Shown: positions 21,232-39,186 of the stretch, in pieces
Layout: every line of letters starts with the position of its first letter
Numbering within the stretch: position 1 is the stretch's first letter
Assembly (NCBI GenBank): GCA_031416355.1
Contig: JANOTM010000006.1
Location: 1-39,324, forward strand
Length of the DNA stretch: 39,324 nt
From: Gammaproteobacteria bacterium
GTDB lineage: Bacteria > Pseudomonadota > Gammaproteobacteria > Acidiferrobacterales > UBA6901
Reading direction: 5' to 3'
Translations under genes and position numbers: made by a program
The notes under the pieces: model-generated
Seen by the model: the letters and a program-made list of their open reading frames with translations, nothing else
Database searches by the model: none
Told to the model about the DNA's origin: nothing

Positions 21232-21308
<77 letters not shown>

Positions 21309-21486: not shown

Positions 21487-22584
21487 TCAACGCTCCCGAA
21501 TACTCTCATGCCCCGCCTGCAACAACGGACTCAGAAAATACTCAATCAACCGGCGTTTGCCGGTTTTGATTTCGACCGCGACGCTCATGCCGGGGGTGAG
21601 GCGGATTTCTTTGGCGTCTACCTGGATGGTGGAACGGGTGAGGCTGACCTTGGCGGTGTAGACCAGGCCGACCTTGTCGATTTGTACGGCGTCGCGTGAC
21701 AGGCTGGTGACTTTGCCTTCGACGGTGCCGTAGCGGGTGAAGGGGAAGGCGTCGATCTTGACTTCGGCGTCTTGGCCTTCGTTGATAAAGCCGATGTCTT
21801 TGTTTTCGAGTATGGCTTCGACTTCGAGTTGGCCGTCTTCGGGGGCGACGACCAGGAGTTGTTGGGCGGGGGTGACGATGCCGCCTACGGTGTGGACGGC
21901 GAGTTGTTGGACTACGCCGGCTATGGGGGCGGTGAGGTGTTGGGCGCCGGCGCGGGTGCCGGCCTTGGTCATTTCATGGGTGAGGGAGCGGGCGCGGATT
22001 TCGGCGGCGGATAGGGCGGTGCTGAATTCATTGGCTTTTTCGGCGCGTTCGCGTTCGACTTCGAGGTATTTGAGGCGGGCGACGTATTCCTGTTGGTACA
22101 GGGTTTTGTAGGCGGCGGCTTGGCTTTTGAGGGCGCGATATTCGGTGAGCTGGTCGTGCAGGCGGGCGCGTTCGGCTTGTACTAGGGCGGGGTTGGCGCC
22201 TGCGGGGACATCGAACCTGTCCTTGTCCGCTAGCAGGGCGCGTAGGCGCGCGACTTCGATGACGGCGGCGTGGTGTTCGTGTTGAAAGCGTTCTTGGTCG
22301 GGGCTGGCGGTGGTGTCGAGTTCGATGAGGGCGTCGCCCTGTTTTACACGGTCGCCGTCGCGTACGTGTATGGCTTTGATGACGCCGGCCTCTAGAGGTT
22401 GAATGACCTTGGAGCGGTCGCTTTGTATGACCTTGCCTTGGGCTACGGCGATGATGTCGATCTTGCCGAAGGCGGACCACAACAAGGCGACGGCGAATAC
22501 GCTGGTGATCGTTAGTGCCACTGCGCGGCCGGCGGGGGATGGTGGGGATACTTGGACTTCCAGCACTGCGGGTAAGAATTCCAA
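21487..22584 (-). CDS. hlyD: HlyD-family type I secretion membrane-fusion protein. It is orphan and its native start codon is missing
   Basis: Collinear with E. coli HlyD from EFLPAVLEVQVSPPSP, through the TM helix, to the terminal …EYFLSPLLQAGHESIRER. Homology continues upstream of the TTG at 22584 (…LQRHITAWQIAWATAQREEPLTVPKGKE) up to a stop at 22771-22773, with no ATG/GTG/TTG in between. Confidence 0.8.
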   Translation of the reverse strand: MEFLPAVLEVQVSPPSPAGRAVALTITSVFAVALLWSAFGKIDIIAVAQGKVIQSDRSKVIQPLEAGVIKAIHVRDGDRVKQGDALIELDTTASPDQERFQHEHHAAVIEVARLRALLADKDRFDVPAGANPALVQAERARLHDQLTEYRALKSQAAAYKTLYQQEYVARLKYLEVERERAEKANEFSTALSAAEIRARSLTHEMTKAGTRAGAQHLTAPIAGVVQQLAVHTVGGIVTPAQQLLVVAPEDGQLEVEAILENKDIGFINEGQDAEVKIDAFPFTRYGTVEGKVTSLSRDAVQIDKVGLVYTAKVSLTRSTIQVDAKEIRLTPGMSVAVEIKTGKRRLIEYFLSPLLQAGHESIRER

Positions 22585-22695
22585 TTCCTTGCCTTTGGGT
22601 ACGGTGAGGGGTTCTTCGCGCTGGGCCGTGGCCCAGGCGATTTGCCAGGCGGTGATGTGGCGTTGTAGGCCTTCGCGTATGGGGTGGGTCTGTTT

Positions 22696-22763
22696 GTAGG
22701 GTGGGGGCCCAGCACCACCGATTTTCCCTGTATCGGATGATGGTGGGGCAGGGCCCCACCCTC
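22696..22763. repeat. Degenerate REP-like inverted doublet lying over the 5' end of the hlyD reading frame
   Basis: GTAGGGTGGGGGCCCAGCACCACC … GGTGGGGCAGGGCCCCACCCTC. The arms resemble the GTAGGGTGGGCA..GCCCACC elements at 16019 and 35217. Confidence 0.55.
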
Positions 22764-22821
22764 TCGCGGGCTAGGTCGCACACGCGCATAATCGAAGCCA
22801 GTCTCGGCGGGGGGAGCGGCG

Positions 22822-24291
22822 ATGTTCCGGTTCGCGTGTGCATGGTCGGTGGTGGTGGCCGTGGTGTTGACGGCGGGATCCGGCGCCGCCACGTGGCAGG
22901 AAGCGGGTTGGATCGAGGACTTTGAGATCGCTCTCGACACCGCGCGTCGTTCGGGCAAGCCGGTGTTCGTCTACTTCGACGCCCCGTGGTGCAGCTGGTG
23001 CCAGCAGTACCGGCGCGACACGCTCGACAAGCCCGAGGTGCGGCAGGTGCTGGCGCGCGACTACGTTCCGGTCGTGGTGAATTACGACGCCCGCCCCGAG
23101 CTGATGCAGCGCTACGGCGGCAAGGGCCTGCCGTTTACCGTGCTGCTGTCGCCGCAGGCGCAGGTGCGCAACCGGTTCGTGGGCGTGATGACGCCCACCG
23201 ACCTCATTGACCTGCTCGCCAGGTTTCGAACCGGCGCGGCCGCGCCGCCGCCCGCGTTCGAAGCGGGACACGTCGTGCGGGTGGAGTCGCTCGATCGGCG
23301 CGGTTACGACGCCTTCCGCCGCGCCTTCCTCGCGCACCTCGAATCGCTGTATGACGCGCGCGCCGGCACCTTGATCGGTCGCTTCGAGACCGGCGCCACG
23401 TTGAAGCGTCCGTCGCCGCTCAGCTGGATCTATTTGATGGACCACGGCCTGTGGCCGGAGCGCGTACCGCGGGCAGCGGCGGCCGAGCGCGAGCGTCTGC
23501 ACGACCCACTCGACGGAGGATTCTTCAACTTTCTCGATCCTTCGCGTCCGGGCGGCGAGTATCTGGAGTCGTCGAAGATACTCGAGAGCAATGCCTGGCT
23601 CGCGGCCTGGATGGCGCGGGCCGGAAAAGAGAACGCCGTCGCGGCGCGCTCCGGTTGGTTCTACCTGCGAGATGTCCTGTGGGACAAAGAGCGCGGTGGA
23701 TTCTGGCAGGCGCAGGTGGCGGACGAAGGCTACTATCGCCTGCCGCGCGCCGAGCGCCGCCAGCGGACACCCCCGGCGCTCGATCGCATCAAGCGCGCGG
23801 ATACCAACGCCCAGGCGGCGCTGGCGCTGTTGCGCATGGGGCAGGCGTTAAAGGATTCGCGCATGATCGACTTCGCGGCGCGGACGCTCGACTTCGTGCT
23901 GGTCACCATGGTGCGCGAGGACGCGCTGTATCACGCGTGGCGCGAGGGCGGTCTCACCGGCCCGGGATTGCCGCAAGACCTGTTCTGGGTGCTGGCAGCG
24001 GGCGCCGAGCTCGAACGCGAGCGGCCCGATGCGAAACGCCGCGCGGTGCTGGACCGGCTGCGCATCGAAGCCGCGCGCTGGCTGGCGCAACGAATGCGCG
24101 CAAATGAAATCTTGCCTGTGGAGTTTGCCGGCCTGATCGCGTGGGTGGCGCGGGACGAGGCGGGGCCGTTCCCGCCGGGCGCACGCGACTGGGCGCTGCG
24201 CCAACTGCGTATCGAGGCCGAGACCGCGCCGGATGAGCTGGTATTGGGCCTGCGCGCGTGGGACACCGCGCGGCCGCAGCGCACGCGTTAG
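22822..24291 (+). CDS. Secreted thioredoxin-fold protein of the DUF255/YyaL type, with a helical (alpha/alpha-toroid-like) C-terminal region
   Basis: Signal peptide MFRFACAWSVVVAVVLTAGSGAA. The pattern …ALDTARRSGKPVFVYFDAPWCSWCQQY…DYVPVVVNYDARPELMQRY matches the DUF255 pattern, with CxxC at 22990-23001. A later block is DPLDGGFFNF…ESSKILESNAWL. Confidence 0.6.
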   Translation: MFRFACAWSVVVAVVLTAGSGAATWQEAGWIEDFEIALDTARRSGKPVFVYFDAPWCSWCQQYRRDTLDKPEVRQVLARDYVPVVVNYDARPELMQRYGGKGLPFTVLLSPQAQVRNRFVGVMTPTDLIDLLARFRTGAAAPPPAFEAGHVVRVESLDRRGYDAFRRAFLAHLESLYDARAGTLIGRFETGATLKRPSPLSWIYLMDHGLWPERVPRAAAAERERLHDPLDGGFFNFLDPSRPGGEYLESSKILESNAWLAAWMARAGKENAVAARSGWFYLRDVLWDKERGGFWQAQVADEGYYRLPRAERRQRTPPALDRIKRADTNAQAALALLRMGQALKDSRMIDFAARTLDFVLVTMVREDALYHAWREGGLTGPGLPQDLFWVLAAGAELERERPDAKRRAVLDRLRIEAARWLAQRMRANEILPVEFAGLIAWVARDEAGPFPPGARDWALRQLRIEAETAPDELVLGLRAWDTARPQRTR

Positions 24292-24564
24292 TTCTGTGGT
24301 ATCTGCGTCAGGTAAATTTTGTGGCGTTTTTTGCGCCGTTTATCAACGGCGGTTCCGGGACGACGCCTTCAAGTTGTGTAAGCGTTGTTGCACAGGCGCG
24401 CACCACGCCCAAGACGCTTGTTGGCAAGGGGAGTTCCACGCGCCGAGCCCCGCGCACATGGCGCTGTTAAAGTTTCCGACGCCAGGCTTTGCACGCAGAG
24501 GAGCGCGGACTCGTTCACCCGGTGACGGGGGAAGACAGGCAGTGGGCCGCGTCCCCCGCCGCGC

Positions 24565-27531
<2,967 letters not shown>

Positions 27532-28061
27532 AGCTGTTCCTTGTGCAGGAGCTGCCGGATACGCAGCGCCTCATTATGGAGCCGCAGATATTCGCCCGCG
27601 CTGTGGCGCCAGGAAAAATACTGGCGCATGCCGGTTAACTGAATCTACTTCCAGGAACGCCGGTCGCGGTACAACGCCAACGCGCGCCGTGCGGCGCCGG
27701 TGGTGATCGCCACGCTTGCCTCCACCACAAGTATAGAAGGTATAAAGCCCCTTTTCCCTGAAAACCATCGTCCGTGGTCCGGGTTCAGTAACCCGTGATC
27801 GCGCTCCTCGCCAGATGCACGCATCCGAGTTTTGGGAAGAATGCGGCAGAGAGACCCAAATCAGCAAACCGGCGGGCGTTTTCGTGGGCGGGAATGGCGC
27901 CCGCCTGACAGTGAACGCGAGAGCACCCGTGCCGATGCCCCGTGAGGCATCGCTGCGATGCGGCGTGTGTACTCAGATTAGAACAGGTGGCCAAACACCA
28001 CGGTAGCGGACCACCTGCAAGTAGCTGGAGCTGTTTCCGTAGGTCAGTAGGGTCAAATGAC

Positions 28062-28118
28062 ATGTCTCGCCCCCTGCGACTGGAGTTTGCAGGCGCGCTC
28101 TACCACGTCACTTCGAGG
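28062..28118 (+). pseudogene. 19-codon N-terminal stub of a REP-associated tyrosine transposase (RAYT, IS200/IS605-like Y1 family)
   Basis: MSRPLRLEFAGALYHVTSR matches the conserved RAYT N-terminus (M.RP.R.EF.GA.YHVTSRGN…). Similarity ends abruptly after HVTSR. Confidence 0.5.
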
Positions 28119-28521
28119 ACCTCAGGGTCATGTTTTGTCTTTTACCTTCTCCGCCACCGTCACGATCCGGCACGGGCGAGCGTGCGGTAGACCGCAACCA
28201 AGTTACCCAGAGGACAGTTTGCGGCCAGAAGCAGCCGGTCGGCCCAGCCTAGAAGCGGTCGTTCAACATCAATGCTCAGTGGCGGCAAAGCCATCCGCTG
28301 CAGCGCCTTGGGCATAGTCGCTTAGATGCGGTTCTTTTCCACAAGCCTTCGGTAGTGCTCTCCGAGCGCAGTAAGCCTGCACGCCTTACTCTCCATCGCA
28401 GCGTTCCACATGTGAGGCGCGTCCACTGGAACAAGTAAATTTAGTCTGTTGTATCTCTGAAGCACTGCGAACGATCGTGTGTTCTCGGGATTCGGAGGGG
28501 GCATTCCAAGGCCCCGGCCCA

Positions 28522-30042
28522 TCATTTCCGGCTCGTAGGTCGGATCGAGAGGAAACTCGAAACCGGGCGAGGGAAAAACTCAGTAAGTCGGCGCAAGTCC
28601 GAAGTAGGAATCGGAGGCGACATCTTCCGCAAGGAAACAAACTGCTTCACGTTAGTTTTAAGGACGGGTCTCTGTTCCCAGGCGCCAAGCGATTGATCTA
28701 TGTGTGCATACACACTGCCAGGAGTAATGTCGCCAGTAAGACCGAGTTTCATGTCACGCTGGGCACTTTGATTCAGCGCGGCTTCCATGCCGGTAAAGTC
28801 TAGGGACAGATTGCCCGCGGTATCGGTGACGATGCCTATGGCCTCCATATAGGGCTTGAGGCGCGTATCCAGCAGGAGTCCGTCATATACCGATTGCCTT
28901 AAGGCGGCATAGCTTTGCGTGAGCAGATCGAGCTGGGCTTGGGCGATGGGCAAAGGGATGATCTTGATGGGGGACTGCAGGCCGGTATTTGCCGGTTGAG
29001 TGGGATCCTTCACACTGTAGGAGACGGTGGCGCTTTGTTGGCGTAGCAAGACTTGGTCGAAATTGAAGAAATACCTTCCATTGAATTTCTCAAGCGTATC
29101 CAGCAGGTTGATCCAGTATTTGAATTCGGGACTTTGCAGGCTTTGGTAGGTTTGCCAGAACACCGAGGTGCTGGGGGGTGCCGCACCGGAGGCGACGGTA
29201 AAATTATTGGCGGCGGTTTGTAGCGATTGCACCGTGAGATTGCCAAACGACAACATGGGCAGCAGGTTATTGGCGATGGCGCGGTCAACGAAGTTGGTGA
29301 GATTGCTGGTATTGCCTCAAGCGTCGATCAGCCCATCGAGCTGGGCCAGTTGAGCGGCGCGCGTGGGGGCGGCGGCGTAATTCGTGAGGGCGGTAGTCAG
29401 AGCAGGGCTTAACGAGGCGGCTTCGCGTAAATCGCGCACCAGGCCGGAGCCGCTCATCGTGGGCAGGGCCTGGGCTGCGGGGGTAATGGCCACGGGGGTG
29501 GTGAAGTTGCTATAAAAGGTGTTTTCCCGAAAGTCCGCGTCGGCGAGTTTACCGGTGGTGGCTAAAGTACTGGTGGTGCCGTTGGCATAGGTGAAGGTGC
29601 CGATATCGGCGATGCGGGAGCCGTCGGGGAGGATTTGGTTGGCGGCGGTCTTGGTCAGAGACAGGGATAGTATATTGAGTTGCGGTAAGCTCAGGAGTTC
29701 GCCAGCTTGGCTTACCGCGCCGCTGTTGGCGTCGCGCCAGACGCGGACGTTGTTGAATTGGGTATCGCTGGCGTTGAAGACGCCATCCTTGTTGGTGTCG
29801 AGATCGGCCAGGGCGGCGAAGCCGTCGAAGGCGGTCTGGCCGTTGCCTAATAAAGTGCTGTCGCCGAACAGTTCTCTGCCACTGTCAATCACACCATTGC
29901 CGTTACGGTCTAGGACCAATAAGCCATCTTGGGGCGTGACCCAACTGGTGGCGGTTTTGATGCCGTCGCCGTCGTGGTCGAATAATATAGGGTTGGTGGG
30001 ATGGCGTTGATGCCGTCGGCGTTGAGGTCCCTTAAGCCTCAC
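28522..30042 (-). pseudogene. Internal fragment of a large RTX-type/T1SS-substrate calcium-binding exoprotein. It has one in-frame TGA (29317-29319) and a 5' frameshift
   Basis: FDHDGDGIKTATSWVTPQDGLLVLDRNGNGVIDSGRELFGDSTLL…FAALADLDTNKDGVFNASDTQFNNVRVWRDANSGAVSQAGELLSLPQLNILSLSL is the D.DGDG/DRNGNG/D.N.DG module common in RTX exoproteins. ORFs 29317-30042 and 28522-29256 share a frame and are separated only by TGA (…[13 protein letters not shown]…). Upstream, DLNADGINAI lies in another frame. Confidence 0.65.
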
Positions 30043-30346
30043 CCATAGCGAAACTATTGTGCATCGACGTATTGTTCCATTCTCCTAAAATGGCGGCATA
30101 ACGGAAAGCGAATACTTGCTCGACACAATAAGCGAATTATCGTACGGCACTAAAAGCGAGCTACAGGACACAGGTATAGCAAAGCCTTCGGAAAAATTGG
30201 CTGAATCTCTCGCTGAAAGGTGCCAGGGTTGGCCAGAATATCGGTTCCTTTACCGATTTCTGGCACGATCGGTTGGTGCCGGATTAAAAGGAAAGCTTGT
30301 TCTAAAACTTCCTTTAAATTACAAGACTGCCAAATTTGCTATGCAG

Positions 30347-30480
30347 TGATCTATACATAGGTCACCAAGCGGTCTAAAGGTCTATGTTTAGATCATTTTA
30401 TCATTGCACAATGCACTGGGTACTGCTAGTATGATCTATACATAGATCACAAGATGATCTTGTGATCTATGTATAAGTCA
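30347..30480 (+). promoter_or_regulatory. hipBA promoter/operator region with three 18-bp palindromic sites
   Basis: The sites are TGATCTATacATAGgTCA (30347-30364), TGATCTATacATAGATCA (30432-30449) and TGATCTATgtATAaGTCA (30463-30480). There is also a perfect nested inverted repeat, AGATCACAAGAT g ATCTTGTGATCT (30444-30468). A candidate -35 TTGCAC (30404-30409) and -10 TAGTAT (30427-30432), 17 nt apart, abut site 2. Confidence 0.6.
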
Positions 30481-30491
30481 TATGCGAAGCC

Positions 30492-30830
30492 ATGCCCAAA
30501 TCAACGACACGTACATATTCCCGCTATAGCCGCGCGGCAATTGCCCTGCTCGGCGGGCTGATTCGTGCTGCCCGCAAGGAACGGAAGATGACGGTATTAG
30601 AAGTATCCGAGCGCGCTGGTATTTCCAGAGGATTGCTACAACGGATCGAAAAAGGCGATCTGAAATGCGGGATCGGCGCAGCCTTCGAAGTTGCTGCAAT
30701 TGTTGGCATCAACCTGTTTGACGCGGAAGAATTATCGCTGACAGGGCGTATCCGTCAAACAGAAGACAAGCTGGCACTGCTGCCGAAATCCGTGCGCAAG
30801 AAAACAAGGGTAGTTACCGATGACTTCTAA
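30492..30830 (+). CDS. hipB: HipB-like XRE-family HTH antitoxin/repressor
   Basis: 112 aa. HTH_XRE core LIRAARKERKMTVLEVSERAGISRGLLQRIEKGD. Overlaps the downstream hipA by 11 nt. Confidence 0.8.
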   Translation: MPKSTTRTYSRYSRAAIALLGGLIRAARKERKMTVLEVSERAGISRGLLQRIEKGDLKCGIGAAFEVAAIVGINLFDAEELSLTGRIRQTEDKLALLPKSVRKKTRVVTDDF

Positions 30831-32082
30831 AAACGCGTACCGCGAAGCGTATGTATGGATTTGGCTACCTGAAGCAACAACACCCGTTGTGGCCGGAAAG
30901 TTGGAGGCTGAAAACGGCAATTTTCTGTTCAACTACGGCAAAACCTACCTTGAGAGAATGAACGATAAGCCCGCGGCCATTTCCATTTACGAGCCTGAGC
31001 TTCCATTGAAGGCAGGCGTGTTACCGCTGCCAGATGGGCTGCACATGCCCAGCTCCATCCGTGATGCCGCTCCCGATGCTTGGGGTCGGCGGGTCATCAT
31101 CAATAAAAAGCTGGGGCTCAGAGGCACGAACACAGATACCACGACACTGGATGAACTGACTTACCTTCTAGAGTCTGGTTCTGACCGGATCGGTGCGCTA
31201 GATTTCCAGCACTCACCGAGCGAATACGTCCCACGTTCCGCGGCAAACGTGACCTTGGAGGAGTTGCTTGAATCAGCTCAGCGTGTTGAACGCGGTGTGC
31301 CACTAACGCCCGAACTCGATCAAGCCCTGTTCCACGGAAGTTCTATCGGCGGCGCGCGTCCCAAGGCTCTGGTCGAAGATCGAGACAAGAAGTATGTCGC
31401 CAAATTCTCTTCGGACTCGGATTTATACAGCGTCGTCAAAGTTGAATATATCGCCATGAGGCTGGCCGCACTCGCGGGTCTTAATGTTGCTCCGGTCAAG
31501 TTAATCACCGCGGCAAACAAGGACGTGCTGCTCATTGAACGTTTTGATCGCAAGAAGACGCCAAAAGGATGGACACGCAAGGCCATGGTTTCCGCACTCA
31601 CCCTCTTTGCTCTTGATGATATGGCAGCAAGATATGCAAGCTATGAAACGCTGGCGGAAATCATCCGTCACCGCTTTACCAATCCAAAGAAAACGCTGGA
31701 AGAACTTTTCTCCCGTCTTGTCTTTAACATTCTTTGCGGCAATACGGATGACCACGCACGTAATCATGCGGCCTTCTGGAACGGAAAGAACCTCCGCCTC
31801 ACGCCGGCTTACGATATCTGTCCCCAGGGGCGAACAGGCAATGAGGCATCGCAAGCAATGCTGATTTCGGGGAACAACAATTTGAGTAAGCTCACTACGT
31901 GCCTTAAAACAGCCAGCAACTTTCATCTTTCGGAAGAGGATGCGCACGCGATCATTGAGAAACAGAAGGCAACCATAGAGACTCGCTGGGATGACGTGTG
32001 CGATGAAGCCAAACTCAGCGAAGTAGACAGGAATCTATTCTGGAAACGGCAGTTTCTTAACCCTTTTGCATTCCAGGACTAA
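30820..32082 (+). CDS. hipA: HipA-family serine/threonine-protein kinase toxin (type II TA)
   Basis: 420 aa. HipA N-terminal coupling domain. GSSIGGARPKALV loop, catalytic GNTDDHARNHAAFW, and YDICP. Confidence 0.85.
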   Translation: MTSKNAYREAYVWIWLPEATTPVVAGKLEAENGNFLFNYGKTYLERMNDKPAAISIYEPELPLKAGVLPLPDGLHMPSSIRDAAPDAWGRRVIINKKLGLRGTNTDTTTLDELTYLLESGSDRIGALDFQHSPSEYVPRSAANVTLEELLESAQRVERGVPLTPELDQALFHGSSIGGARPKALVEDRDKKYVAKFSSDSDLYSVVKVEYIAMRLAALAGLNVAPVKLITAANKDVLLIERFDRKKTPKGWTRKAMVSALTLFALDDMAARYASYETLAEIIRHRFTNPKKTLEELFSRLVFNILCGNTDDHARNHAAFWNGKNLRLTPAYDICPQGRTGNEASQAMLISGNNNLSKLTTCLKTASNFHLSEEDAHAIIEKQKATIETRWDDVCDEAKLSEVDRNLFWKRQFLNPFAFQD

Positions 32083-35301: not shown

Positions 35302-35352
35302 CTCGGCAACTGCTCCATGCGTTGCTCTACCTCCTGCATCCATGCAGTCGTC
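35302..35352. repeat. 51-nt module, copy A1
   Basis: CTCGGCAACTGCTCCATGCGTTGCTCTACCTCCTGCATCCATGCAGTCGTC. Confidence 0.85.
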
Positions 35353-35364
35353 ACCCCTACCCCT

Positions 35365-35463
35365 CTCGGCAAATGCTCCCGGCTTTGCTCTACCTCCTCG
35401 GCGGCGGTTCCCGACGCCGCTCTACCTCCTCCATCCCTGGAGTCGTGCATCCATGCAGTCGTC
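35365..35463. repeat. 99-nt long variant of the module, copy A2
   Basis: It has the same first 34 nt and last 17 nt as the 51-nt unit. The internal insert is CGGCGGCGGTTCCCGACGCCGCTCTACCTCCTCCATCCCTGGAGTCGT. It differs from copy A4 at only 5 positions. Confidence 0.85.
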
Positions 35464-37874: not shown

Positions 37875-37930
37875 TTTCTTACCCTAGAGTTCCTAGCAAA
37901 ATGAAAACGCAAATCGCCTTAGCCCTCATC

Positions 37931-37981
37931 CTCGGCAACCGCTCCCGGCGTTGCTCTACCTCCTGCATCCATGCAGTCGTC
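37931..37981. repeat. 51-nt module, copy A3
   Basis: CTCGGCAACCGCTCCCGGCGTTGCTCTACCTCCTGCATCCATGCAGTCGTC. Confidence 0.85.
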
Positions 37982-38077
37982 GGCAACCGCTCCCGGCGTT
38001 GCTCTACCTCCTCGGCGGCGGTTCCCGACGCCGCTCTACCTCCTCCATCCCTGGAGTCGTGCATCCATGCAGTCGTG
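37981..38077. repeat. Long variant of the module, copy A4 (abuts A3)
   Basis: CGGCAACCGCTCCCGGCGTTGCTCTACCTCCTCGGCGGCGGTTCCCGACGCCGCTCTACCTCCTCCATCCCTGGAGTCGTGCATCCATGCAGTCGTG. Confidence 0.85.
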
Positions 38078-38897: not shown

Positions 38898-38941
38898 GGC
38901 TCTACCCAGGAACCCGGCCTAAGGCCGCACGAACTCTCCTT

Positions 38942-38992
38942 CTCGGCAAATGCTCCCGGCTTTGCTCTACCTCCTGCATCCATGCAGTCGTC
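38942..38992. repeat. 51-nt module, copy A5
   Basis: CTCGGCAAATGCTCCCGGCTTTGCTCTACCTCCTGCATCCATGCAGTCGTC. Confidence 0.85.
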
Positions 38993-39186
38993 CCGCGTGC
39001 GGGAGAAGGTGGCCCACAGGGCCGGATGAGGGAAGAGACCGCACGGTTCCGGGGTACAATTCGCGACCATGGCGGGTCGTGCGGTCTCTCCCGCGTGCGG
39101 GAGAAGGTGGCCCGCAGGGCCGGATGAGGGAAGCGACCGCCCGCTCCCGGAACCCACCGTAATTAGGTGGGTCGGGCGGTCTCTCG
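38991..39186. repeat. Two tandem copies of a 98-nt structured unit in the nuoI-nuoJ spacer
   Basis: Both copies start TCCCGCGTGCGGGAGAAGGTGGCCC(A/G)CAGGGCCGGATGAGGGAAG (38991 and 39089). Each ends in a long hairpin: AGAGACCGCACG…CGTGCGGTCTCT (39034-39045 / 39078-39089) and AGCGACCGCCCG…CGGGCGGTCTCT (39132-39143 / 39173-39184). Confidence 0.85.

Follow-up and report, generated by a model that had tools for sequence, protein, structure and literature searches.

A carrier-FAAL-PlsC fusion protein in an apparently imported block of an Acidiferrobacterales genome: a candidate self-contained enzyme for Aas-like fatty-acid salvage

Can a single bacterial polypeptide activate a free fatty acid, hold it on a carrier of its own and pass it to a membrane lipid, and is a neighbouring gene involved in doing so? 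The question is raised by a gene for a fusion protein of 988 amino acids (aa) in a 39,324-nt stretch of DNA (contig JANOTM010000006.1 of assembly GCA_031416355.1, Acidiferrobacterales, UBA6901), which was analyzed at its full length and is called the window hereafter. An earlier reading made from the letters alone (the sequence-only reading) had described the protein as four elements, namely a phosphopantetheine carrier domain with a GFDSL motif, an adenylation domain of the fatty acyl-AMP ligase (FAAL) type, a hydrophobic membrane segment and a PlsC-type acyltransferase with NHxxxxD and FFPEGT motifs, and had paired its gene with a convergent one for an exported thioredoxin-like protein of the DUF255/YyaL type. 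Based on our analysis, the fusion is best interpreted, with a probability of roughly 0.6, as a self-contained carrier-FAAL-PlsC enzyme for fatty-acid salvage of the E. coli Aas kind, working without coenzyme A (CoA) or the soluble acyl carrier protein AcpP, and encoded in a block of DNA that appears to have been imported.

Many overlapping long open reading frames (ORFs) were listed in the GC-rich part of the window, where the guanine-plus-cytosine (GC) content is 0.69-0.71 over 23-27 kb versus 0.55-0.60 in the flanks. Long ORFs overlapping on several frames are the chance expectation in DNA of 70% GC, and those of 489 and 988 aa were taken as real because of their profile hits and thousands of homologs. 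Both ORFs of the proposed GC-rich pair were located; they are convergent, are separated by a 273-nt spacer and have GC contents of 0.69 (thioredoxin-like gene) and 0.70 (fusion gene), while the block that contains them measures 0.687 and the remainder of the window 0.575. The thioredoxin-like gene had also been called the only intact neighbour of the fusion, which agrees with our annotation, the flanking HlyD gene being truncated and a glgA tail on the other side having an in-frame stop. The coordinates of all these features were listed in Table 1.

Table 1. Features of the window discussed in this study (positions are those of the window unless a locus is named; aa, residues of the fusion protein).
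Feature	Position	Strand	Basis
N-terminally truncated HlyD-family gene, left of block	21487-22584	-	Pfam HlyD_3, HlyD_D23
GC-rich block, apparently imported (thioredoxin gene, fusion, glgA tail)	22690-27750	.	GC contrast, edges, independent assemblies
DUF255/YyaL-type gene	22822-24291	+	489 aa, exported; Pfam and fold match
ACP-FAAL-PlsC fusion gene, intact (ACP, acyl carrier protein)	24565-27531	-	988 aa; ORF, 3 Pfam domains above threshold
PlsC/LPLAT acyltransferase core, aa 800-924 (LPLAT, lysophospholipid acyltransferase)	24760-25134	-	PF01553; H819-x4-D824, F861-x-E-R864, F889-F-P-E-G-T, VPVVP
Two-helix membrane-association unit, aa 725-795	25147-25359	-	Hydropathy, predicted helices before PlsC core
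FAAL domain, aa 163-718	25378-27045	-	PF00501; nearest structures FAALs
Ala/Gly/Ser-rich flexible carrier-FAAL linker, aa 98-162	27046-27240	-	Low pLDDT, variable length
Carrier (PP-binding) domain, aa 34-97	27241-27432	-	PF00550; Ser61 in GFDSL
glgA pseudogene remnant, last ~70 codons	27537-27749	-	tblastn with L001, L002, L004 glgA; in-frame stop
REP-like repeat	35302-35463, 37930-38076, 38941-38994; also L002 4775-4843, 8309-8436; L007 1043-1089

Pfam analysis revealed only three domains in the 988-aa protein, all of them above the gathering score. The first, PP-binding (PF00550), matched residues 34-97 with 40.8 bits against a cutoff of 20.8 (E 2.7e-10), and in its motif G58-F-D60-S61-L both D60 and S61 were invariant in alignments of 16 and of 68 homologs; this fits the (D/G)xDS(L/I) consensus of carriers, in which helix 2 begins with the conserved serine, Ser61 is the predicted phosphopantetheine-attachment site, and the carrier with GFDSL is as the sequence-only reading had it. 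In an AlphaFold model of the whole protein (mean predicted local distance difference test score, pLDDT, 77.6) the carrier was modelled as a confident helical bundle. The linker behind it is disordered, with pLDDT below 50 at residues 106-134, and differs widely in length among homologs; a 51-nt tandem duplication within it (copies 27170-27196 and 27221-27247, aa ~95-121, AVQGCTSAAG… / AVQGSTSSAA…) accounts in part for the extra length of the window protein (988 versus ~945 aa). The fusion retains every residue that is invariant across the 68 homologs, and Ka/Ks values of 0.19-0.28 against its closest relatives suggest that the gene is under purifying selection.

A side observation concerns the same linker in related loci. 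Three gaps between genes of the window's nuo operon hold 1-3 copies of a repeat resembling repetitive extragenic palindromic (REP) elements (…CTCGGCAA(A/C)(T/C)GCTCC…TTGCTCTACCTCCTGCATCCATGCAGTCGTC). It is also present in related Acidiferrobacterales-like loci, two of which, L002 and L007, have it within the fusion gene's linker between carrier and FAAL domain, where it seems to be in frame; the L002 protein is 1018 aa long and has an insert of ~156 nt relative to the window. The element was not found in the window's own linker, where the 51-nt duplication is present instead.

The second domain, AMP-binding (PF00501), matched residues 163-572 (E 3e-74), and its motifs YTSGSTGNPKG, YGLAE, SGD and a C-terminal lysine motif of the SSGKIRR type were all invariant in the homologs. 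FAALs are marked by a specific insertion that follows motif A5 within the N-terminal domain. Compared with six acyl-CoA ligases, the window protein has ~28 extra residues directly after A5, the spacing from A5 to A7 being 101 residues versus 62-75, and it aligns without gaps with the E. coli FAAL across the insertion region. Among solved structures the closest were E. coli FAAL 3PBK (7e-85), the FAAL 7R7E of a polyketide synthase (PKS) loading module, Legionella FAAL 3KXW and FadD32/23/28, with FAALs of the PDB scoring 162-289 bits versus no more than 118 bits for acyl-CoA ligases. The NCBIfam FAAL models PRK09192, PRK05850 and FadD32 were among the best matches as well, each under its own curated cutoff. 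Because the nearest structures are FAALs and the ~28-residue insertion is present, the adenylation domain is assigned by sequence to the FAAL type, which bears out the original proposal.

The third domain (PF01553, residues 800-924) scored 85.7 bits against a cutoff of 23 (E 3e-24). N818-H819-x4-D824, R864 and F889-F890-P-E892-G893-T were invariant in the 68 homologs, and V920 and P921 of the VPVVP block were at least 90% conserved, so that the PlsC-type domain and both of its proposed motifs were recovered. When the C-terminal 270 residues were searched alone, the best profile was that of 1-acylglycerol-3-phosphate acyltransferases (AGPATs; TIGR00530), with 80.8 bits, followed by Aas-type acyl-ACP-phospholipid acyltransferases and by OlsA (51.9 and 47.3 bits). 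Since the TIGR00530 score stays under the cutoff of 102.95, this half is not classed as PlsC and is better termed AGPAT-like; its sole structural relative by sequence is Thermotoga maritima PlsC (TmPlsC, 5KYM, E 2e-15). The positions of motifs II and III, which we take from established LPLAT knowledge to bind phosphate, are occupied by the invariant R864 and R897, and these residues would point to a phosphate-bearing acceptor, lysophosphatidic acid (LPA) or a lysophospholipid.

The hydrophobic membrane segment is present as well, residues 744-777 being the one stretch of strong hydrophobicity that lies outside the domain cores (maximum of 1.98 on the 19-residue Kyte-Doolittle scale, KD19), with a near-invariant A765-P766 pair inside the unit. 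Two helices predicted in the model (725-774 and 778-795) directly precede the PlsC core, and the alignment with TmPlsC begins at 5KYM residue 52, just past the N-terminal anchor of that protein. The stretch is better read as the normal membrane anchor of a PlsC-type domain because its position matches the N-terminal membrane-anchoring helices of TmPlsC, and its earlier listing as a separate fourth module is given up.

For substrate, acceptor, topology and physiological role we infer the following series of steps. The FAAL domain would adenylate a free long-chain fatty acid with ATP, and the acyl group would then be loaded on the protein's own N-terminal carrier through the phosphopantetheine arm at Ser61, the FAAL-type insertion probably disfavouring CoA as acyl acceptor. 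Swinging on the disordered linker of ~60 residues, the acyl-carrier would dock on the C-terminal domain of the PlsC type, which the two-helix unit is expected to hold at the cytoplasmic membrane face, and there His819 of the HX4D motif would catalyse ester formation on LPA or a lysophospholipid. As a net result, free fatty acid would be salvaged into membrane phospholipid without CoA, soluble AcpP or a partner gene. Since the hydrophobic unit follows 720 cytoplasmic residues and the carrier must reach the active site, a monotopic or hairpin form is assumed for it. Adenylation, tethering and PlsC-type transfer appear to be the best explanation of the domain set, and a reasonable one.

Several points weigh against this interpretation. 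The hydrophobic stretch was modelled as one long helix, and a single membrane crossing would put the acyltransferase on the side opposite to the FAAL domain and carrier; the monotopic or hairpin form is thus an assumption. The acyltransferase half lies under the curated AGPAT cutoff, for which reason LPA or a lysophospholipid is a presumptive acceptor, and motif III reads EGTFxR, not EGTR. No LplT-like flippase was linked to the fusion gene in the window or at 87 fusion loci, and the searchable literature held no biochemical or genetic data for any family member. Finally, the upstream operon has been lost at this locus, and no sigma-70-like promoter was detected in a scan of 22400-28400 that covered one promoter type; terminator-like sites in the same interval were at chance level.

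The fusion belongs to a very common and widespread bacterial family, which has already been noticed and is experimentally uncharacterised. The protein search returned at least 8000 scored candidates, with thousands of metagenome proteins, and the 120 matches listed were 924-1018 aa long, 62-90% identical and aligned over at least 97% of the query. Apart from P0085, a record without PP-binding, these 120 proteins share the same three Pfam domains; they come from Nitrosospira, Ferrovum, Gallionellaceae, Sulfuricaulis, Ca. Muproteobacteria and others, and the homologs carry database names such as 'AMP-binding protein' or '1-acyl-sn-glycerol-3-phosphate acyltransferase'. With one genome per species scanned, at least 599 genome loci were found, and full-length matches occurred in Gamma-, Beta-, Alpha- and Deltaproteobacteria, Actinomycetota, Nitrospira, Planctomycetia and Entotheonella, the cultured hosts including Cupriavidus, Methylocystis, Mesorhizobium, Marinobacter, Halomonas, Photobacterium and Thiocystis. 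A FAAL-like protein fused to a lysophospholipid acyltransferase has been noted as a "unique domain organization" (PMC8460268), and a 2026 FAAL survey lists an "LPAT_AGPAT_like" context (PMC12820801), but the architecture was not treated in a 2025 FAAL review (PMC11837247). Full-text literature gave passing mentions of FAAL-LPLAT/AGPAT fusions and no functional study, subscription journals being mostly outside this coverage, so that absence is not proof. The architecture is not a well-characterised Aas-type enzyme; with at least 599 loci and two FAAL surveys mentioning it, it is not rare either.

All ORFs within 6 kb of the gene at the 87 fusion loci were clustered, and no specific conserved neighbour cluster was found among them. 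The top cluster was a generic FHA-ABC transporter (12/87 loci); the second, seen at nine loci and at varying distances, had the appearance of a paralog cluster and was rejected as such, its members being mostly ordinary acyl-CoA ligases and one of them a second AMP-ACP-PlsC fusion. A downstream gene of the major facilitator superfamily (MFS; 8/87 loci) was considered as LplT and dropped, as it is Atg22-like and matches no NCBIfam model. The fusion gene is thus normally a stand-alone unit, and the absence of a conserved partner gene fits a self-contained enzyme. As to the family as a whole, chances are about even that it represents a self-sufficient, one-polypeptide route from free fatty acid to phospholipid, with no need of CoA, soluble AcpP or a partner gene, and that many chemolithoautotrophs (Nitrosospira, Gallionellaceae, Ferrovum, Acidiferrobacterales) and various heterotrophs rely on it as their chief enzyme of fatty-acid salvage and membrane repair.

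A fusion of another make was seen in a Chromatiales metagenome-assembled genome (MAG). At locus L038 (18120-20591, - strand), ~5 kb from a member of the fusion family, an 823-aa triple fusion has the order AMP-binding (acyl-CoA-ligase-like), PP-binding and PlsC; because of this different domain order, carrier-containing fusions of activator and acyltransferase have arisen more than once.

How did the gene come to lie in this genome? The closest fusion homologs (83-90% aa identity) are situated 2-10 nt downstream of glgA within a glycogen cluster with the order glgP, malQ, GH57, glgC, pgi, glgA, fusion and, further on, a GH57 branching enzyme and glk. The layout of glgA followed by the fusion is also found with a 65% homolog and in a Ca. 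Muproteobacteria genome, and glgA and the fusion are on the same strand throughout this Acidiferrobacterales-like and Ca. Muproteobacteria lineage (L001 6526-10856, L002 6525-11057, L004 4098-8464, L009 8534-12838, L015 8503-12799, L098 4919-9327 and L007 1-3692). DNA homology between the window and the glgA-fusion loci runs from 24553 to ~27700 (27686-27701), beyond the fusion start codon. Because the remnant beyond that codon translates to the GlgA C-terminus, the fusion was probably imported together with the glgA 3' end, which has since decayed to 57-68% identity (tblastn) with one stop, versus 90% for the fusion. The remnant forms the right edge of the block. On the left, the edge at ~22690 is sharp and coincides with the start of the homology to contig L010; L010 has the same thioredoxin-fusion junction (97% and 92% identity) and is unrelated to the window upstream of 22690. 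To the left of the block, the HlyD ORF has 365 aa, compared with 417-487 aa for the members of its cluster at 90% identity or more.

The host NusA is closest to that of Acidiferrobacterales MAGs (85-86%), with Acidiferrobacter at 76-77%, and the named members of the fusion's cluster at 90% or more are also Acidiferrobacterales. As both sets of relatives belong to this order, a transfer within the order is indicated, and the block appears to have been acquired by the Acidiferrobacterales host from a related lineage of higher GC in which the fusion stands directly after glgA. The glgA remnant is the decisive evidence for import. The composition, on which the gene had first been called foreign, is less telling: in every locus examined (e.g. 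L001, L003, L005 and L008) the GC content of the fusion gene exceeds that of its flanks by 4-10 points irrespective of genome GC, and since the gene is intrinsically GC-richer than they are, the contrast overstates its foreignness.

The abrupt GC change could also come from a chimeric assembly joining two organisms, and several short contigs that end at ~24608 might indicate that the assembly graph branches at the fusion gene. However, the seven short contigs L091-L097, which come from independent samples, match 22205-25221 at 99.4-100%; among these, L092 and L093 cross the junction of the HlyD fragment with the block, and L091 and L094 that of the thioredoxin gene with the fusion, all from separate samples and at 99.4-99.9%. 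The degraded glgA tail beside a 90% fusion likewise indicates decay in place. With both junctions crossed independently, we consider an assembly chimera ruled out. The contigs L093, L095, L096 and L097 all stop at window position 24608, within the fusion gene and ~45 nt from its 3' end, which suggests branching from several diverged fusion copies in the same communities.

An imported gene may be intact merely through recent transfer, as a silent passenger in a patch of decaying gene fragments. The truncated HlyD gene, the glgA remnant with its stop and ORF fragments without family hits are its neighbours here, and in the donor layout the fusion, 2-10 nt after glgA, is probably co-transcribed with an upstream operon that was lost at this locus, where the scan for sigma-70-like promoters gave nothing. 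On the other hand, that scan was limited to one promoter type, the complete ORF retains all invariant residues, and the same arrangement recurs at 99.4-100% identity in several samples, which implies that it is stably carried. The Ka/Ks values speak in the same direction, though most of the divergence may predate the transfer. A silent gene in this genome is hence a doubtful but real alternative to a working salvage enzyme.

The glycogen cluster bears on the acceptor as well. The chemistry could be the same and the acceptor another one, such as a lyso-aminolipid (as for OlsA), a glycolipid or a glucan-linked acceptor tied to glycogen metabolism. The acyltransferase half misses the AGPAT cutoff and also matches OlsA models, the LPLAT family spans aminolipid and lipopolysaccharide (LPS) acyltransferases (PMC11631085), and in 7 loci of one lineage the fusion begins immediately behind glgA. 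Nevertheless, the best profile and the sole structural match are AGPAT/PlsC, no conserved olsB or glycosyltransferase partner was seen, and the glgA linkage is restricted to one sub-lineage, being absent in Nitrosospira, L005, L008 and 79/80 genome loci. A non-phospholipid acceptor is unlikely in general, and that the enzyme of the glgA-linked lineage acylates a glucan-related or other such acceptor is very improbable; LPA or a lysophospholipid is still the preferred acceptor.

The 489-aa product of the neighbouring gene belongs to the DUF255/YyaL type, of which it is a short and exported representative, in line with its first description as a CxxC protein with a signal peptide. It has a hydrophobic N-terminal leader (residues 4-22) and a W56-C57-S-W59-C60 motif that is invariant in 62 homologs. 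Pfam analysis gave Thioredoxin_7 (57.7 bits) and Thioredox_DsbH/DUF255 (PF03190; 40.1 bits against a cutoff of 27), the latter match covering only profile positions 22-90 of 163. The model (pLDDT 92.9) shows a thioredoxin domain followed by a C-terminal (α/α)6 barrel, and its best fold match was the Brucella Thioredox_DsbH-domain protein 7TKV (template modelling (TM) score 0.70), followed by cellobiose 2-epimerases and GH76. The family is small (121 hits) and largely confined to sulfur-oxidising Gammaproteobacteria.

It had been proposed that DUF255 proteins and the fusion occur together, and the two could then form a functional module, for example with the DUF255-type protein as a periplasmic redox or glycan-binding partner of a lipid-modifying enzyme. 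The genes are adjacent, convergent, similar in GC (0.69 and 0.70) and inherited together; L010 has the same junction in another flank context, both families are found in sulfur- and iron-oxidising Gammaproteobacteria, and L008 carries both, 10 kb apart on one contig. The neighbourhood check did not sustain the pairing: no thioredoxin homolog was found within 10 kb of the fusion at any of 80 species-representative loci, and no fusion homolog stood beside a thioredoxin-family gene at 24 metagenome loci examined from the DUF255 side (near-full-length genes, 15 of them with at least 1 kb of downstream flank). The adjacency was seen only in near-identical contigs, and the nearest fusion homologs (83-90%) have different downstream genes. 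Convergent genes, moreover, cannot be co-transcribed, and one product is exported while the other would act at the cytoplasmic face. The two-gene module is already refuted at the level of conservation and has next to no likelihood left; the DUF255-type gene is a bystander carried in the same block, not a partner, and the fusion is read as an enzyme on its own.

The block belongs to a patchwork of ~10 kb (21487-32082) between rimP-nusA-infB and the nuo operon, which adjoins a tRNA-Met gene (21232-21308) and is made up of the truncated HlyD gene, the block itself, ORF fragments (28522-30042) and hipBA. This arrangement resembles a degraded integration hotspot. The hipB-like helix-turn-helix gene (30347-30482) and the hipA toxin-kinase gene (30492-32082), noted with an 11-nt overlap, have a GC content of 0.48-0.53, and two repeats of ~50 nt before the former contain a near-perfect palindrome (TGATCTATACATAGATCA…) that is probably the HipB operator. 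Two further candidates were rejected. The ORF fragments were considered as pieces of a repeats-in-toxin (RTX)-type exoprotein, for which only sub-threshold hits to EF-hand and dockerin-like calcium motifs were obtained, and an IS200/RAYT-like transposase fragment at ~28057-28190, suggested by a motif, had no Pfam hit up to E 10.

The locus itself adds little, a small imported block with a further copy of a gene that is very common. The family, with at least 599 species-level loci, near-invariant catalytic residues and no partner genes, is a worthwhile experimental target. If the proposed function is true, there would be a third way of recycling fatty acids, in cis, besides FadD with CoA and Aas/AasS with soluble ACP, and a FAAL would be seen at work in primary membrane-lipid metabolism instead of natural-product pathways.

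Several known systems can be compared with the proteins of this locus. The DUF255-type neighbour resembles DUF255/YyaL/SSP411 proteins (Brucella Bab1_2064, 7TKV) in its N-terminal thioredoxin fold followed by an (α/α)6 barrel, and differs in being shorter (489 versus ~640 aa), in its export leader, in having WCSWC as its CxxC motif and in forming a small clade. With PlsC/AGPAT (5KYM, TIGR00530) the fusion shares the HX4D, FxxR, EGT and VPxxP blocks and the two-helix hydrophobic unit before the core, but its acyltransferase half is under the AGPAT cutoff and stands behind 720 residues of carrier and FAAL; because of this fusion, the acyl donor would be delivered in cis. FAALs (3PBK, 3KXW, M. 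tuberculosis FadD32/FadD28) come closest to the fusion in sequence (E 7e-85 to 1e-46) and share the post-A5 insertion, and transfer is therefore expected to a carrier thiol, not to CoA. Known FAALs feed PKS and nonribosomal peptide synthetase (NRPS) or mycolate pathways and occur as stand-alone proteins, FAAL-ACP didomains or loading modules. In the fusion, by contrast, the FAAL domain is partnered by a PlsC-type lipid acyltransferase and has the carrier on its N-terminal side, and there is no surrounding biosynthetic cluster.

In ElbD of Myxococcus xanthus and in the AGPAT domain of myxobacterial polyunsaturated fatty acid (PUFA) synthases, a carrier-tethered acyl chain is reportedly handed straight to a fused AGPAT-type domain for lipid assembly. 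ElbD has an additional NAD(P)H-dependent reductase domain, placed between its carrier and AGPAT domains, and makes ether-lipid precursors, and PUFA synthases build their chain de novo, whereas the fusion, with three Pfam domains only, has no reductase or chain-building domain. ElbD appears in PMC9131029.

The closest comparison is with E. coli Aas (PRK08043) and the MFS-AT-AAS fusions (PRK08633, PRK06814), which like the fusion combine an adenylate-forming activator and a PlsC-type acyltransferase in one polypeptide. In both cases the acyl chain would pass through a phosphopantetheine thioester to a membrane lysolipid, with salvage and membrane repair as the inferred role. As the sequence-only reading had recognised, the domain order of the fusion is reversed and its carrier is built in, while Aas uses soluble AcpP. 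Furthermore, its adenylation domain falls in the FAAL rather than the Aas/AasS clade, a linked LplT-type flippase was found neither in the window nor at the 87 loci, and it scores far under the Aas cutoffs (27.8 versus 886 for PRK08043 with the acyltransferase half; 175.9 versus 1221 for PRK08633 with the whole protein). By this comparison, the fusion would be a functional analogue of E. coli Aas rather than a member of the Aas family.

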